From a bacterium (GTDB lineage: Bacteria > Zhuqueibacterota > Zhuqueibacteria > Residuimicrobiales > Krinioviventaceae), in assembly GCA_963693055.1 (NCBI GenBank), contig OY843751.1, positions 5,792,001 through 5,856,000 of the forward strand: 64,000 nucleotides of DNA, read 5' to 3'. The position numbers and the translations under genes were made by a program. Under the pieces are notes generated by a model. The model saw only the letters and a program-made list of their open reading frames with translations. It was not told where the DNA came from and did not search any database. Position 1 is the first letter of the stretch. Each line of letters opens with the position of its first letter. Positions 46,127 to 54,500 of this stretch are shown here, piece after piece.

Positions 46127-46153
46127 AGCCCGATGATTAACCATCACCGGGCT
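46127..46153. terminator. Hairpin between convergent genes (likely bidirectional terminator)
   Basis: AGCCCGATGAT/ATCACCGGGCT inverted repeat located between two stop codons. Confidence 0.6.
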
Positions 46154-46157
46154 AAAA

Positions 46158-46943
46158 TTACTTCATTAAGGTTAAAGATTTTGTATCTTTAAAATCTCCA
46201 GCGTGAATGCTGTAAAAATATACCCCGGAAGGCACCTGAAATCCTTTATCATTCATACCATTCCACATTACACTAAACTTTCCGGCTTGCATGGGCTGGT
46301 CTACCAGAGAGCGAACTTTTTGCCCCAATGCATTAAAAATCTCCAATTTTACATGTTCAGCAGCAGCAATACTGTACTGAATACGCGTATTGGGATTAAA
46401 GGGATTGGGATAGTTTTGTGCCAGTTCAAATTGTGTAATCGTTTTAGAACCATCATTAATACCCGTATCAATGGTTTTAATTAAAAAACTACTGTTAGAC
46501 AGGGTATAAGGAAGTTTCTCATTATCCACATCAGAAACAGTAACCTCTTCAAAGGTTAATTCATATTCCTGACCGGCTGGTGCATCTTCAGACACACTAT
46601 AGGCGATGTAAAGTATATTAGCCGTCTGTGGTTCAATGGTTCTGGTTTTACTTTGCAGTAAAAGAATTTCAGAAGTATTGAGCTCAGGATAATAGTTATA
46701 AGAAAACAGTTGTGATCTCTGAATGTTTTCAGTCCAAATAGAATCAACTGTCAGATAATCACTATTATCTATCAAACGAAATTGTATACCTCGTATTGTA
46801 TCTTCATTTGCAAGGTTCAGATACACCAAATTACCAACACTTCCGGGTGTTCCGCTTCCATTGCTTAAACTTAACGAGTTGACCCCTGCAAAAGCACTGC
46901 CTGCAGCAATCATTAATAAAATCAGTATCTTGTAAACTTTCAT
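46158..46943 (-). CDS. Secreted cohesin-like domain protein with T9SS type-A/FlgD-Ig sorting domain
   Basis: Signal peptide. Cohesin-like LNLANEDTIRGIQFRL. Sorting domain FELAQNYPNPFNPNT...WNG...SGVYFY...K. Confidence 0.8.
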   Translation of the reverse strand: MKVYKILILLMIAAGSAFAGVNSLSLSNGSGTPGSVGNLVYLNLANEDTIRGIQFRLIDNSDYLTVDSIWTENIQRSQLFSYNYYPELNTSEILLLQSKTRTIEPQTANILYIAYSVSEDAPAGQEYELTFEEVTVSDVDNEKLPYTLSNSSFLIKTIDTGINDGSKTITQFELAQNYPNPFNPNTRIQYSIAAAEHVKLEIFNALGQKVRSLVDQPMQAGKFSVMWNGMNDKGFQVPSGVYFYSIHAGDFKDTKSLTLMK

Positions 46944-46986
46944 CTCTCACCCCAAAACAATTTAAAATTGATTGGTTAATATATAT

Positions 46987-47012
46987 GGGAGCAGTAAAAA
47001 ATTACTGCTCCC
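46987..47012. other. Perfect intergenic stem-loop without a U tract
   Basis: GGGAGCAGTAA-aaaa-TTACTGCTCCC, an 11-bp stem. Confidence 0.75.
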
Positions 47013-47036
47013 TAAATTCATCTATTCATTAATCTA

Positions 47037-48821
47037 TTATGGATTAGCCAAATCTACTACTGCAAGCGCATCGTAAACATCAATGTCACCATCCTGGTCA
47101 ATATCGCCCGCTAAACGCTCAATATCAGTTGCTGGATCACCGGTGCCCAAAATGATTTCTGCCATACGATCGATATCATCGTTATCAACAGTACCGGTTG
47201 GTACAATATCGCCGGTAAGTACATAATGGAACAAACCGGAAACCAGTGAAGGAACAACTGCCTGGTTGTTGTCATCAGATAATGCTACATTTGAAAAAGT
47301 CAAAGATGACGTTGTACCATAAGTAACTGCAGGATCAATATGGAAATTAATTTGAGCAATAGCGCCTGAACCTGCCGGAATAGAAGTAAAAGAGGTTGTA
47401 TTGGCTATAAGTACCTGAACATAAGTTCCAGATTCATCAAAAGTTACATCAAAAGTAGATGCACGTCCAACACCAAGCACATCTGTTGCAGTCAATTCGT
47501 TAGGAGTATCTGTCAAACGGAACAATACACCACGAATAGGTACCTGGTTTTCAAGCAAAACATTGATTGTTACATCTTCATCCTGTTCACCACTGCCGCT
47601 CTGCACAGACAATACAACTTGAGAAGATGAAATGTTAAATACGGCATCACTCTGGTCTGTTGGGCTTGCATCGGTATCTTGAACCCTTACCAAAGCTGTA
47701 GAAGTGGTAACTGTTGGAACGGTCCAGGAATAGCTGCCATCATTAGGTGTACTGGCAACAATAGAGGTCCAGGTGGTTCCACTGTCAGTTGAATAAGAGA
47801 TTGAAACGTTTGCAATAGTACCTTCAGATGTCCAAGTAATATCGTGAGCAGAGCTTGATGCCCAGGTTTCGCCACCGTTAGGACTGGTAACTGTAACCGT
47901 TTGAACTTCGGCAGTAATTTCAAATGTAGCAGTACTAATACCCCATGGAACACCATCAGCAGCATCAGAAACTCTTACAAGACAGTTCTCGGATGGAGCA
48001 TTAGGAATCGTCCATGCATAGGTACCGGTATTGGTTGTAGAAGAAACAATATCGGTCCAGGTAGCGCCGCTATCTGTAGAATATTCAATCTGAACATCAT
48101 CAGAAAATTCAGAAATATCCCAGGCAATTGTTTCAGCAGAGCCAACCAACCAAACTTCTCCACCTGAAGGTGAAGTAACATCAATTGTTTCTGCTCGGAG
48201 TGTAAAATCGTCAACATTATTGCTTGAATTACCAAAAAGAGCAACACCGGAATAATAGAAATAGCTATTTCCGTACAATTTGCCGGCATCCGTAACACGA
48301 CCATCTAAATTACCATTGATATAAAAATCAAAATGGTAACCACTGGCGTCAGAAGATGCAGCAACCGTAATTTTGTCGCCAGCTGTAGGCGCACCAAGTG
48401 TAGCTGTAACTTTGGCAATTTCAGTCTCACGTATTACATTACCATTTACAACAGGAAGCAGGTACAGGTATTCATTACGACGCATTACCATGTAACCTTC
48501 AGCGTTTGATACATTCGAAGAAGACAAGAACATACAAAGACCAGATGCGTTAGCACCTGCTGTTGTAGCGGTTGATGCAAATGTCATAGATACTTCTGAA
48601 GGACTTGCCTGGGCAGTATATACTGCAACATAATCCCAGGAGCCAACTGTTGAAGTGTTTGACAATGTATTAGTTACAATTGCGTATTCGGGATCAGCGG
48701 ACCAGTTTGATCCTAATGATGCCCGGTTAAAATCATCCACTATGGTGACAGCACCCAAAGGCAATATAGATGCGCCAAGCAGGATGACGAGCATGATCGA
48801 GAAAATGGATTTAATTCTCAT
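47037..48821 (-). CDS. Secreted modular protein: beta-sandwich/lectin-like domain, two SPNGGE (Ser/Thr-rich, Asp-box) Ig-like repeats, cohesin-like domain, C-terminal dockerin
   Basis: Signal peptide. Repeats at about aa 212-302 and 308-397. Cohesin-like LENQVPIRGVLFRL. Dockerin duplicate GDIVPTGTVDNDD / GDIDQDGDIDVYD. Confidence 0.8.
   Translation of the reverse strand: MRIKSIFSIMLVILLGASILPLGAVTIVDDFNRASLGSNWSADPEYAIVTNTLSNTSTVGSWDYVAVYTAQASPSEVSMTFASTATTAGANASGLCMFLSSSNVSNAEGYMVMRRNEYLYLLPVVNGNVIRETEIAKVTATLGAPTAGDKITVAASSDASGYHFDFYINGNLDGRVTDAGKLYGNSYFYYSGVALFGNSSNNVDDFTLRAETIDVTSPSGGEVWLVGSAETIAWDISEFSDDVQIEYSTDSGATWTDIVSSTTNTGTYAWTIPNAPSENCLVRVSDAADGVPWGISTATFEITAEVQTVTVTSPNGGETWASSSAHDITWTSEGTIANVSISYSTDSGTTWTSIVASTPNDGSYSWTVPTVTTSTALVRVQDTDASPTDQSDAVFNISSSQVVLSVQSGSGEQDEDVTINVLLENQVPIRGVLFRLTDTPNELTATDVLGVGRASTFDVTFDESGTYVQVLIANTTSFTSIPAGSGAIAQINFHIDPAVTYGTTSSLTFSNVALSDDNNQAVVPSLVSGLFHYVLTGDIVPTGTVDNDDIDRMAEIILGTGDPATDIERLAGDIDQDGDIDVYDALAVVDLANP
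47631..48188 (-). repeat. Two tandem ~90-aa intragenic repeats
   Basis: VTSPSGGEVW...IEYSTDSGATW...GTYAWTIP...LVRVSD versus VTSPNGGETW...ISYSTDSGTTW...GSYSWTVP...LVRVQD. Confidence 0.85.
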
Positions 48822-48872
48822 TGTTAACCTCTATCTCTTTATTAATTTTTACCAATTCGTTATACCTGCTAA

Positions 48873-50312
48873 TTATTTCATGATAGCCAGTTTTTTGGTC
48901 AAAACCACGTCTCTGGCTGAAAATCTGTAAAAATAAACACCTGATGAAACTTCTCTACCATAATCGTCAGAACCATTCCAGTGAACAGTATAGCGACCAG
49001 CTGATTTGCTGTGATCTACCAGTGTTTTTACCAATTGACCACGGGTGTTAAAGATTTCCATTTTAACGGGTACTGAGCCATTTTCAATGCTTGGCACATC
49101 AAAAGTAATTGTTGTGTTCATGTTGAACGGATTTGGGCTGTTCTGATGCAAAGCAAATGTTTGAGGAACAATAGTAACATCTGAACTTTGACCGGTCATG
49201 GTCTGCAAAGCAGATCCGTTTTCAGAACCAGCAATTGCGTGGTTGATAGAAATTGCTGATGTTTCATTCAAAGCCTTGCGGATGGTTACAGGAATTGTCA
49301 TAACAGTTGATTCACCCATAGACAATGACTGTCCTTCAAGACCGCACATGATAACATTTAATTTTTTTCCGGCTTTTCTGCTAACAATACTCATACCAGA
49401 AGAAGCACTGGTGGTGCTGGGAGAACCAACAACATAATTATCAGATTCCATCTCGAGCTCAAACTGTAAACCATGCAATGCTGCCGAACTATTTACAGTA
49501 ACAGGTACATCAATTTTCCCTACAAAGTTTGCAGGTAAAGCAGGTAAAGAAATTTTTACGCTACCGGAAGTTTTGCTCAATGGAGTAACTCTGGCAGAAG
49601 AAGGTGCAACTGCCTGGTCCATTGCTTCACCTATATCAACAACAGTAATCAAACCGTCATCATCCCAATCGGCTGCCCAAAGTTCGTAAGAAGTGGGTGG
49701 GTCACCTCGATCAAGAGCAATATCAACAATACGCAAAACGTCAAACAAATCTACAACACCATTATAGATAACATCCAGTTTTTTACCAAACCAGAAACGT
49801 CCATTATCACGAATATTTGTAACCGGCGCATTTGTTGTTCCGGCAAGTTTAACATTGTTTAATGTCATGTCAGCAGTTGTTCCACCAGAGGCGCCATCCG
49901 CAACATCGACGGTTACAAAAAGAATTGTATCGCCGGTTGCATTTGTCTTTGCTTCCAGCAATGTTCCATCAGGGTCAATAGGAAGCATCAATACTTTTAA
50001 CGTACCCTCAACCTGTGTTGTATCAACTCTGAAATTTGCAGACTTTGTTGGTGTAGTAACACAGTTCAAGGCCGTTGTTGTAGAAATGCCTGTTACAAAT
50101 AAAGAATCCGGAAAATCAGACAAGGTAAAATACAATCCCTTAATTTCCGTTGTGTTTGAAAGTACGACAGCAAAAGTACCTGCCTGACCCGGTAACCCGT
50201 AACTGTCTGTAACTCTCAGTGTATCGGTTGTTGCCGAAAAACCCGGAACCAGCATCGTTCCGATCAGAATCAGGGTTATAATCAGGACTGGTATGGTTGA
50301 TGAGTGTTTCAT
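48873..50312 (-). CDS. Secreted cohesin-dockerin-cohesin protein with T9SS type-A/FlgD-Ig sorting domain
   Basis: Signal peptide (start placed at 50312 behind GGAGG). Cohesin-like LSNTTEIKGLYFTL and VNSSAALHGLQFEL. Dockerin DVIYNGVVDLFD / ADWDDDGLITVVD. Sorting domain FALHQNSPNPFN...SSGVYFY...K. Confidence 0.8.
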   Translation of the reverse strand: MKHSSTIPVLIITLILIGTMLVPGFSATTDTLRVTDSYGLPGQAGTFAVVLSNTTEIKGLYFTLSDFPDSLFVTGISTTTALNCVTTPTKSANFRVDTTQVEGTLKVLMLPIDPDGTLLEAKTNATGDTILFVTVDVADGASGGTTADMTLNNVKLAGTTNAPVTNIRDNGRFWFGKKLDVIYNGVVDLFDVLRIVDIALDRGDPPTSYELWAADWDDDGLITVVDIGEAMDQAVAPSSARVTPLSKTSGSVKISLPALPANFVGKIDVPVTVNSSAALHGLQFELEMESDNYVVGSPSTTSASSGMSIVSRKAGKKLNVIMCGLEGQSLSMGESTVMTIPVTIRKALNETSAISINHAIAGSENGSALQTMTGQSSDVTIVPQTFALHQNSPNPFNMNTTITFDVPSIENGSVPVKMEIFNTRGQLVKTLVDHSKSAGRYTVHWNGSDDYGREVSSGVYFYRFSARDVVLTKKLAIMK

Positions 50313-50602
50313 CATACCCTCCATTTATAATTTTGTTAAAAAGTAACTGCGATTTAATGGTACAAGCGGTTTTGTTAAAAAAGTGTTTCTTGTTGAAACG
50401 GTAACTCTAAAGTGATACAATCACAAATTAGTAATTGAACTCTTGTTCCCCACCTCCTTCCATTCGATATTTATCTTTATTTTTTTCATATCTATAATTG
50501 TCTGTTTTTTATTAAGTTACGACACTGTCAATCTTGGCTTTTTTTCAATCTGTTCGGAACAAGCGCTTACTTTGTATTGTGTCTCATTCTATACCCTATT
50601 AA

Positions 50603-53345: not shown

Positions 53346-54500
53346 ATGAATATTAGTAAAATATCGGTCAAAGCGTTCAAGTCGATTTACGATCTTTCAG
53401 TACCCCTTGATTCCAAGATCAATGTTTTCATTGGCGCAAACGAAAATGGAAAAACAAACCTGTTAAAATCTGTTGAAGCATTCCGTACCGATGTGCCCTT
53501 TGACAGTTCAATTACTTGCCAATATTCAAGTCATTATCATGAAGGCAAATGTCCCGAAATTATACTCGAATTTTCAAATTTTTCCAAAGAAAATCGTAGA
53601 AAATTATTGTTGGTTTCAGACGTATTCAAGGATGTAACCAGCTTTCAAATTAAAAGAGATGGCCCGGATATTTCAAACTATCATCTCTATATTGGAGATG
53701 AAGAGTTTGAAAAAGTAGATATGAAAAAACTGATGCTGGCTTTGCCCAAAATCATTTATTTCAGTGAAATACCTCTACTTAAAAACAAGGTCAACTATGA
53801 AAGCCTGATCTCAAACAGTGCAGAATTTTCAACTGAAAAAAATCTGCTTAGAATTGGCAACATTGATGATTACGATCTGATATTTGAAGACAGTTCTCGA
53901 GGCAGACGCGCGGCAGAAGAAGCAAGCCGTATTATTACAGAACAAATTCGAAGGGTATGGTCTCAGGAACAGTCTATAGAGATCAAACTCCATATCAACG
54001 GAAATGTATTGTATATTGACTTTGCGGATTCAACCACGGTATTAGACCCGCCGGAATCACGCAGTCTGGGCTTTCGCTGGTACCTCTCTTTTTATGTCAA
54101 CTTTATTACCAAGACCTTTGAAGACCGTTCAACAGATTACGTATTTTTAATCGATGAGCCGGGCATTCATTTGCATCCAGCGGGACAAAAAGATTTAATT
54201 CAGGTTCTTGAAGAATTATCTGTAAACAATCAGATTCTTTATACAACCCACTCGCCTTTTCTTATTGATCGGCGTCACCCGGAGCGGGTTTTCCTGATCA
54301 GTAAGGATAAAAACGGTACCAATGTAGATACTCAAGCATATCGTGACAACTGGAAACCCCTTCGCAAACAAATTGGCCTTGCCATTAGTGATCTGTTTTT
54401 CTTTAATGACAAAAGCCTGATACTTGAACTGCCAACCCGTAAAAAGTTTAATATTGTAACTAAAAAGGACCAGGAAAACGGTTCAGGAATGATAAATTGA
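53346..54500 (+). CDS. OLD-family/AAA_15-type ABC-like ATPase lacking a TOPRIM domain
   Basis: FKSI, GANENGKTN, RSLGFRWY, LIDEPGIHLHP and YTTHSPF motifs. The protein ends where TOPRIM would begin. Confidence 0.85.
   Translation: MNISKISVKAFKSIYDLSVPLDSKINVFIGANENGKTNLLKSVEAFRTDVPFDSSITCQYSSHYHEGKCPEIILEFSNFSKENRRKLLLVSDVFKDVTSFQIKRDGPDISNYHLYIGDEEFEKVDMKKLMLALPKIIYFSEIPLLKNKVNYESLISNSAEFSTEKNLLRIGNIDDYDLIFEDSSRGRRAAEEASRIITEQIRRVWSQEQSIEIKLHINGNVLYIDFADSTTVLDPPESRSLGFRWYLSFYVNFITKTFEDRSTDYVFLIDEPGIHLHPAGQKDLIQVLEELSVNNQILYTTHSPFLIDRRHPERVFLISKDKNGTNVDTQAYRDNWKPLRKQIGLAISDLFFFNDKSLILELPTRKKFNIVTKKDQENGSGMIN

Follow-up and report, generated by a model that had tools for sequence, protein, structure and literature searches.

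In a 64,000-nucleotide stretch of the chromosome of a bacterium assigned to the Zhuqueibacterota (contig OY843751.1, positions 5,792,001 to 5,856,000; "the window" below means this whole stretch), three consecutive genes on the minus strand, here called A, B and C, encode secreted proteins built from cohesin and dockerin modules. We propose that A, B and C form a small, enzyme-free cohesin-dockerin complex on the cell surface, anchored through a type IX secretion system (T9SS) and displaying a lectin-like adhesin, B. We put the probability of this reading at roughly 0.55. Docking between cohesins and dockerins is familiar chiefly as what holds Gram-positive cellulosomes together, and few of its roles outside them have been worked out.

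In the complex that we propose, A and C would be exported via SprA, and PorU would swap their C-terminal sorting domain (CTD) for a lipid anchor, by analogy with the T9SS cargo of Bacteroidota. B would be retained at the surface by its dockerin, docked on the cohesin of C or on one of those of A, as in anchoring scaffoldins. The operon encodes four sockets (cohesins) and two plugs (dockerins), and the spare sockets could take the dockerin of A, more B units, or the dockerin of an S8 protease encoded elsewhere in the genome. The ConA-like head of B would bind a glycan on a substrate, on a partner cell or on the cell's own surface. Gene coordinates below are positions within the window, and coordinates prefixed G000:C1 refer to the window's genome, which is a single 6.54-Mb contig.

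Cohesin and dockerin modules

The first-pass annotation of this DNA had described three secreted proteins that share a paralogous domain, with the architectures cohesin-dockerin-cohesin-CTD (A), lectin-like domain, two immunoglobulin (Ig)-like domains, cohesin and dockerin (B), and cohesin-CTD (C). All three architectures are correct (Table 1), and the peptides that it quoted are all found in the translations. It had also recognized no catalytic domain in any of the three, and scans of A, B and C with Pfam and NCBIfam likewise gave no match to a catalytic family. By BLASTP, the cohesins of B and C (B-coh and C-coh) are related at E 5e-8, and the first cohesin of A (A-coh1) is related to B-coh at E 9e-5. 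For the second cohesin of A (A-coh2), reported as a fourth copy, BLASTP gives no significant match (E 1.2). A-coh2 was found with hidden Markov models (HMMs) built from orthologues and run against 20,631 six-frame open reading frames (ORFs) of the genome (cohB, E 4.6e-5; cohA1, E 5e-4). The same HMMs tie the other three cohesins together at 1e-13 to 1e-22. On its HMM score and its fold (Z 11.6), A-coh2 stands as a divergent yet real member of the set.

Pfam gives a similar picture for B and C. The Cohesin family (PF00963) has a curated cut-off of 24.1 bits, and two of the proteins pass it, B with 24.6 and C with 30.5 bits; the genome-wide search confirmed both. Neither A-coh1 nor A-coh2 has a Pfam Cohesin match at E<=1 in the window's copy of A, and PF00963 is listed for 16 of the 24 A orthologues P0002-P0025.

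Structure models were made with AlphaFold2 (AF2). A was folded from 24 sequences (P0001-P0004 and P0006-P0025, excluding the fragment P0005 and P0026, which has 72% coverage), and B from 33 hand-picked sequences with coverage of at least 92% and lengths of 581-615 amino acids (aa). The mean predicted local distance difference test (pLDDT) values are 78.4 for A and 87.7 for B. The predicted template modelling score (pTM) is 0.46 for both, too low to fix how the domains are arranged within each protein. In fold comparison (VIA), the A-coh1 model (A 28-177) lies on the type I cohesin 6kgc_A with Z 18.4 and a root-mean-square deviation (rmsd) of 1.7 over 137 of 144 residues, the A-coh2 model (A 252-377) on the type II cohesin 5g5d_A with Z 11.6 and rmsd 2.5 over 122 residues, and the B-coh model (B 400-535) on 5nrk_A with Z 18.7 and rmsd 1.9 over 136 of 143 residues. 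The best Foldseek matches of A are cohesins as well, with TM 0.76-0.81 by target, and the family profile of B matches the 5nrk_A cohesin at E 8e-4. Judged by these profiles and models, the modules shared by A, B and C are real cohesins.

Two further segments, one internal to A (A-doc) and one at the C-terminus of B (B-doc), are filed here as divergent dockerins, again on profiles and models. The A-doc family profile matches the ScaB dockerin 4uyp_B at E 4.7e-4; the B-doc profile matches 4uyp_B at 9.7e-5, 2ccl_B at 2.1e-4 and 1ohz_B at 8.7e-4. The A-doc and B-doc HMMs match each other (1.6e-7 and 1.6e-8). Each segment has three helices in the AF2 models and two loop-helix repeats, of which the second loop is canonical. 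In a type I dockerin, a helix comes after a calcium loop of 12 residues resembling an EF hand in each of the two repeats. The duplicated dockerin-like loops that the annotation had seen in two of the proteins are those of A and B, with a loop 1 that is degenerate by the ligand positions of dockerin loops. Loop 1 is nearer canonical in B orthologues (D-I-N-G-S-G-T-T-D-Q-A-D). A precomputed match to the Pfam family Dockerin_1 (PF00404) is present in 3 of 24 A orthologues and 11 of 32 B orthologues.

Mean conservation of A-doc is 0.73, compared with 0.52-0.55 for the cohesins of A, and is the highest among the modules of A except the CTD. B ends in a dockerin and never in a CTD in all 33 aligned orthologues, which were chosen for full length. 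Residues 27-234 of A (Coh1-Doc) match the cohesin-dockerin frames of proteins that resemble B, with 30-37% identity. From this resemblance we conclude that cohesin-dockerin is a duplicated two-module unit.

Predicted docking and conservation of the operon

One dockerin-cohesin pair from within the operon, B-doc and C-coh, is predicted to bind. The complex was modelled from family alignments of B-doc and C-coh plus two calcium ions, and reached an ipSAE of 0.73, compared with 0.03 for the best of three controls. Of 157 solved complexes, 116 reach the score mark that we used, as do 2 of 215 mismatched pairs, although with our own alignments and two calcium ions riding along this calibration holds only roughly. 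Between runs, at least 100% of the contacts agree, and the pLDDT of the partner is at least 90. In the model, B-doc helices 1 and 3 (residues 550-560 and 581-593) sit on one sheet of C-coh, and the predicted dockerin-binding face of C-coh comprises residues 51-54, 78-83, 92-99 and 135-141. Of the assembly suggested in the first-pass annotation, docking is therefore predicted for one pair, but the model does not single out the cognate cohesin. Conservation was of no help in pairing. None of the four cohesin families showed enriched conservation at the interface, and neither did B-doc; in a module-wise comparison no cohesin face was distinct.

The three genes have stayed together. Full-length orthologues of A share 35-90% identity and come from genomes labelled candidate division KSB1, Calditrichota or simply "bacterium". 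The order and strand of A-B-C are kept in 25 of the 28 species genomes that have a full-length A orthologue; at the remaining three, a contig end interrupts the locus. The glucan phosphorylase gene lies upstream in 25 of the 28 loci, and the M48 peptidase and LigA genes lie downstream in 16. Between B and C, six loci (L007, L008, L009, L011, L012 and L013) contain some 2.3 kb of additional DNA, at about 10.1-12.5 kb within each locus. In the locus examined, L013, this DNA encodes a B paralogue, a second subunit of the B type that has three Ig domains.

With A minus its CTD as the query, A is present in 43 of the 167 genomes of the phylum. By family, it occurs in 8/8 genomes of f3, 14/14 of f4, 4/4 of f6, 7/18 of f1 and, as a longer divergent form, 6/14 of f12, and almost nowhere else. 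This distribution, together with the kept gene order, indicates a clade-restricted, stably inherited operon.

Predicted export and surface anchoring

By sequence, A and C are ordinary T9SS cargo, since both have CTDs and the genome encodes T9SS machinery. The first-pass annotation had suggested export through T9SS-like sorting domains, and in both proteins the domain scores above the TIGR04183 cut-off of 23 bits (A, 33.6; C, 36.3). The model of the A CTD lies on the C-terminal domain of PorU (6za2_A) with Z 11.0. The genome encodes two copies of PorU over cut-off (882.6 and 876.3 bits), SprA (661.7 bits) and a PorV-like protein (242.1 bits, slightly under the cut-off of 250), and its CTD matches number at least 150, with 150 of the 264 candidates scored. 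All three N-termini have hydrophobic signal-like segments, and a lipobox cysteine is absent from all three. By analogy with Bacteroidota cargo, we infer a lipid-anchored surface location for A and C. The two PorU genes are full-length paralogues about 1 kb apart (G000:C1:6252356-6259881), and there are several further partial PorU-like matches elsewhere.

B has no match to a CTD family (Pfam PF18962, NCBIfam TIGR04183). Without a sorting domain, it is not a member of the T9SS type A cargo.

The lectin-like head of B

The N-terminal domain of B has the fold of a ConA-like lectin jelly-roll. Its best fold match is the central fibre of mycobacteriophage Douge (8zdp_v, Z 18.4), at the fibre tip, followed by the lectin domain of galactocerebrosidase (3zr5_A, Z 16.1), the carbohydrate-binding module (CBM) CBM66 (4azz_A, Z 14.4) and legume lectins (Z about 13). 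The domain has no Pfam family. We tried to name it with Atlas, which gave mixed ConA-like accessory families at 0.91-0.94 that share few features; we treat these as leads only.

The two domains that follow are Ig-like and all-beta in the AF2 model, and the fold search barely probed them. Their Pfam matches are below threshold (Kre9_KNH, 18.8 bits; Reelin_subrepeat-B, 22.4 bits). The B paralogue of L013 passes both Kre9_KNH (43.8 bits) and Big_7 (32.4 bits).

Two giant T9SS proteins, one of 2,747 and one of 2,701 aa, also carry the head domain of B (HMM E 1e-22 to 1e-40), together with Big_1, MG and fn3 domains. One (L087, G000:C1:978911-987151) has two copies and the other (L088, G000:C1:2305767-2313869) has one. 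Given this recurrence, the head is a reusable surface module of this genome.

Dockerins and cohesins elsewhere in the genome

The annotation had expected the scaffold to be loaded with dockerin-bearing proteins encoded elsewhere. A few such proteins exist, but the pool is tiny. Five proteins have Pfam dockerins over cut-off: an S8 subtilase, a LamG-dockerin-CTD protein and three FG-GAP proteins. None of the five is a glycoside hydrolase (GH), and our custom dockerin HMMs added none. The S8 protease (G000:C1:4341302-4342933) ends in a dockerin of 28.9 bits that is matched by the A-doc HMM at 1.3e-5 and the B-doc HMM at 2.4e-9, and it is the sole other protein matched by both. The FG-GAP dockerins are matched by neither HMM and belong to a different subtype.

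These findings bear on a different role for the operon, in which the cohesins would gather dockerin-tagged proteins, chiefly the S8 subtilase, at the surface to degrade proteins and not cellulose, and B would be the substrate-targeting subunit. We regard such an enzyme-recruiting scaffold as unlikely. The S8 dockerin is over the Pfam cut-off and is the only one outside the operon recognized by both operon HMMs, the four sockets exceed the two plugs that the operon encodes, and a dockerin-tagged S8/S53 peptidase is part of the system inferred in 'Ca. Stygibacter' (PMC8542988). However, the genome has only the five Pfam dockerin proteins and no GH among them, and the FG-GAP dockerins are of another subtype than those of A and B. 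In addition, S8-dockerin matches among those listed occur in 7 of 167 genomes, as against 43 of 167 for the A family, so that most holders of the operon show no S8 partner by this query. Among the matches listed, six of the seven genomes (G000, G085, G081, G082, G083 and G086) belong to the window's own family and one (G075) to f2. As these genomes are kin and not independent, we draw no conclusion from the co-occurrence of the S8 dockerin with the operon.

Further cohesins are found in the genome. Two Pfam-level cohesins lie near the C-terminus of a 3,386-aa frame with PKD, FG-GAP, BNR-like, VWA and CTD domains (L086, G000:C1:5212793-5222950), whose product could be a partner of dockerins of the FG-GAP type. 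A 251-aa CTD protein has a weak cohesin-like domain (cohA2 HMM, 4e-6). Its gene is directly downstream of that for a CTD-tailed M14 zinc carboxypeptidase, and the two (L080, G000:C1:4718447-4721100; L089, 5445-8100) may be a second, small socket-plus-enzyme pair.

The three FG-GAP proteins have a dockerin end followed by a short cysteine-containing tail (G000:C1:1390309-1396044, L083 and L084; G000:C1:4018591-4022553, L082). L083 and L084 are tandem paralogues that are nearly identical over the C-terminal ~100 aa. Weak, multiple B-doc HMM matches occur in giants of 1,201-2,299 aa with many short calcium-loop-like repeats (G000:C1:4735933-4744451 and G000:C1:4778311-4791974). These repeats are probably calcium-binding motifs and not dockerins.

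Points against the proposed complex and other readings

Several observations weigh against a surface complex held together by docking. First, both dockerins of the window match PF00404 but score under its curated cut-off of 22.9 bits (A, 12.3 and B, 13.9 bits; 15.8 and 16.6 in the genome search), and in this genome the first calcium loop of A-doc and of B-doc lacks the position-3 ligand, with V or I in its place. Second, cohesin-dockerin complexes are abundant among solved structures, so that the B-doc/C-coh model may pass on likeness only, and the controls were unrelated proteins and not non-cognate dockerins, so that the score does not identify the true cohesin partner. Third, the predicted interface is no more conserved than the remainder of the domain, both in C-coh (0.40 vs 0.52) and in B-doc (0.57 vs 0.63). 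Fourth, the sugar-binding role of the B head is predicted from fold likeness. Fifth, B lacks a CTD that would account for its passage across the outer membrane. Lastly, GldM/PorM was not found with TIGR03517, a query whose control matched in 0 of 14 reference genomes and is hence uninformative.

The first three points would also fit an account without docking, in which A, B and C are independent proteins of the surface or the periplasm, their cohesin folds are generic beta-sandwich spacers and their dockerin-like segments are linkers stabilized by calcium. The sub-threshold Pfam scores, the degenerate first loop, the lack of preferential conservation at the predicted interface and the possibility that the complex model draws on memory of solved complexes all lean this way. 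We nevertheless think that an absence of docking is very unlikely. A co-linear trio shares the two complementary modules at 25 of the 28 loci, even where identity falls to about 35%; A-doc is the most conserved module of A apart from the CTD (0.73); B is always dockerin-ended in its 33 aligned orthologues; and the complex scores 0.73 against 0.03 for its best control.

A reading that keeps docking but changes its geometry is that the linker-less cohesin-dockerin units bind head-to-tail, producing a self-polymerizing chain or lattice of lectin-studded fibres or a layer, with C as the root and A as a branch. A and B each fuse a cohesin directly to a dockerin, in homologous units, and a second subunit of the B type is present in some genomes. 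Among the cohesins, B-coh and C-coh resemble each other most (HMM E 3.6e-22), so a dockerin that fits C could fit B. We consider such polymers quite unlikely, since the complex model covered the heterotypic pair B-doc/C-coh only, the pTM of 0.46 in both models does not fix the domain arrangement, and in classical scaffoldins a dockerin usually differs in specificity from the cohesins of its own chain.

The missing CTD of B raises the question of whether a dockerin might itself be a trans-acting tag for T9SS export and anchoring. B, the S8 protease and the three FG-GAP proteins would fold in the periplasm, plug into the cohesin of a CTD carrier (C or A), ride the SprA translocon and so reach the surface pre-docked. 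Counting A and B with the five proteins over the Pfam cut-off, there are seven dockerin proteins. Five of the seven have no CTD and end in the dockerin, and each of these five has a signal-like N-terminus; in the remaining two, A and the LamG protein, the dockerin is internal and a CTD is present. This idea seems improbable to us. Three secretin-like ORFs in the genome, all under the GspD cut-off, offer an ordinary alternative to a passenger route for B.

We thus favor the anchored, enzyme-free complex displaying B, at the probability given above.

The locus

The three ORFs are separated by 51 nt (A/B) and 93 nt (B/C). A glucan phosphorylase gene lies upstream of A in divergent orientation, and genes for an M48 peptidase, LigA and proline dehydrogenase lie downstream of C. 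An AAA_15/AAA_21 ATPase gene (window 53346-54500) adjoins the phosphorylase gene and is 81-84% identical in L002 and L003, where the identities of its neighbors are far lower (GlgP about 68%, A 52-54%). Two stem-loops were found by a pattern scan, one in the B/C gap and one directly past C. The positions of the genes, modules and stem-loops are given in Table 1.

Table 1. Genes, protein modules and stem-loops of the A-B-C operon, by position within the window.
Feature	Positions	Strand	Description
Gene A	48873..50324	-	483 aa: signal peptide, Coh1, Doc, Coh2, T9SS CTD; 479 aa from second Met block (database protein P0001)
A-coh1, type-I-like cohesin	49785..50237	-	residues 30-180; VIA Z 18.4; cohB HMM E 1.7e-13
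A-doc, divergent dockerin	49605..49787	-	residues 180-240; fused directly to Coh1; Pfam 12.3 bits
A-coh2, divergent fourth cohesin	49140..49577	-	residues 250-395; cohB HMM 4.6e-5; VIA Z 11.6
A CTD, type A T9SS sorting domain	48876..49142	-	residues 395-483; TIGR04183 33.6 bits
Gene B	47037..48821	-	594 aa: signal peptide, ConA-like lectin-like domain, two Ig-like domains, Coh, Doc; without CTD
B N-terminal ConA-like lectin jelly-roll	48186..48758	-	residues 22-212; VIA fold matches
B, two Ig-like beta-sandwich domains	47628..48185	-	residues 213-398; all-beta in AF2 model
B-coh, type-I-like cohesin	47226..47624	-	residues 400-532; Pfam Cohesin 24.6 bits; VIA Z 18.7
B-doc, C-terminal dockerin	47040..47225	-	residues 533-594; fused directly to B-coh; Pfam 13.9 bits
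Stem-loop, 11-bp, B/C gap	46987..47012	-	pattern scan; terminator-like or attenuator-like; without clean T run
Gene C	46158..46943	-	261 aa: signal peptide, Coh, T9SS CTD
C-coh	46449..46886	-	residues 20-165; Pfam Cohesin 30.5 bits; cohB HMM 3.6e-22
C CTD, type A T9SS sorting domain	46161..46430	-	residues 172-261; TIGR04183 36.3 bits; FlgD_ig 43.1 bits
Stem-loop, 11-bp, directly past C	46127..46153	-	pattern scan; likely transcription-unit end

Comparison with known systems

The operon is not part of a classical cellulosome, which we ruled out on finding neither dockerin-tagged GHs nor a CBM3 or SLH. In A, B and C themselves, scans with Pfam and NCBIfam found no CBM, SLH or sortase-signal families.

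The sca cluster of Ruminococcus flavefaciens encodes proteins with comparable roles. There, ScaE is a single-cohesin anchor with a cell-wall sorting signal, CttA is a non-catalytic carbohydrate-binding protein held by its C-terminal dockerin, and adaptor scaffoldins carry modules of both types. C resembles the ScaE anchor, B resembles CttA and A resembles the adaptor scaffoldins. ScaE-type cohesins (2zf9 and 4iu3) are among the fold matches of A and B, with Z 10.8-13.5. The sca system is Gram-positive, with sortase anchoring, X-dockerin modules and many dockerin-tagged GHs. In contrast, the A-B-C operon is from a diderm and has T9SS CTDs as its putative anchors, no X module and no GH among the dockerin proteins.

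The closest structural likeness is to clostridial type I pairs: ScaB Coh6-DocCel5 of Acetivibrio cellulolyticus (5nrk/5nrm), CohI with the Xyn10B dockerin of Clostridium thermocellum (1ohz/2ccl) and ScaC-ScaB (4uyp). By fold they match A-coh1 and B-coh best, with Z 18.1-18.7 and rmsd 1.7-2.0, and by profile they are the best matches of both dockerins; the predicted B-doc/C-coh complex likewise uses helices 1 and 3 on one cohesin sheet. However, identity to these pairs is 12-20%, and A, B and C differ from them in the degenerate first calcium loop, the linker-less cohesin-dockerin fusion and the non-cellulolytic context.

Cohesins outside cellulosomes are also similar. B-coh matches the non-cellulosomal cohesin 2xdh of Archaeoglobus fulgidus with Z 18.6, and this A. 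fulgidus protein carries both a cohesin and a dockerin. The family profile of A-coh2 resembles the cohesin of Clostridium perfringens GH84C/NagJ (2w1n, 2jh2 and 2o4e) at E 0.09, and NagJ 2w1n aligns to A 249-478 as a cohesin followed by a beta-sandwich. These relatives are archaeal or belong to a toxin-associated GH. They are neither T9SS cargo nor encoded in a three-gene operon of sockets and plugs.

The operon is less new than was implied, in that a CTD-anchored cohesin scaffoldin with dockerin enzymes has already been inferred in 'Ca. Stygibacter' (Cloacimonadota; Williams et al. 2021, PMC8542988). That organism, too, belongs to a candidate phylum of the FCB group that is known only from metagenome-assembled genomes. 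As described there, a scaffoldin-like cohesin protein carries a conserved CTD for surface attachment, and proteins with signal peptides end in dockerins, including the S8/S53 peptidase mentioned above; that system, too, is an inference, and no binding data are reported for it (PMC8542988). The differences are in scale and content. The Stygibacter system has one scaffoldin of 3,755 aa with tandem cohesins, CBM2 and CBM3, which collects GH18, GH57 and peptidases (PMC8542988). A, B and C differ in being three small proteins from one conserved operon, sockets and plugs together, with no enzyme, no CBM2 or CBM3, and a ConA-like head.

Our search of the full-text literature found no work that ties cohesin and dockerin to KSB1. 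The sole distinct full-text work that mentions both KSB1 and dockerin (PMC13452462) is on dockerins of viruses and anaerobic methanotrophic archaea (ANME), an unrelated system, and was set aside.

Significance

In the literature searched, we found no bench test of a T9SS-linked cohesin-dockerin system. The A-B-C operon offers a small and self-contained test case. Its products bear four sockets and two plugs, or three plugs if the S8 protease is counted, along with one lectin-like head, and they include no enzyme. Its gene order is kept throughout entire families of an uncultured phylum. Work on it could reveal how plugs and sockets pair, whether sets of this kind form adhesive structures on the surface of diderms, and how dockerin proteins that lack a CTD cross the outer membrane. 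Small orthogonal cohesin-dockerin pairs of this kind could also serve for surface display in Bacteroidota-type hosts.

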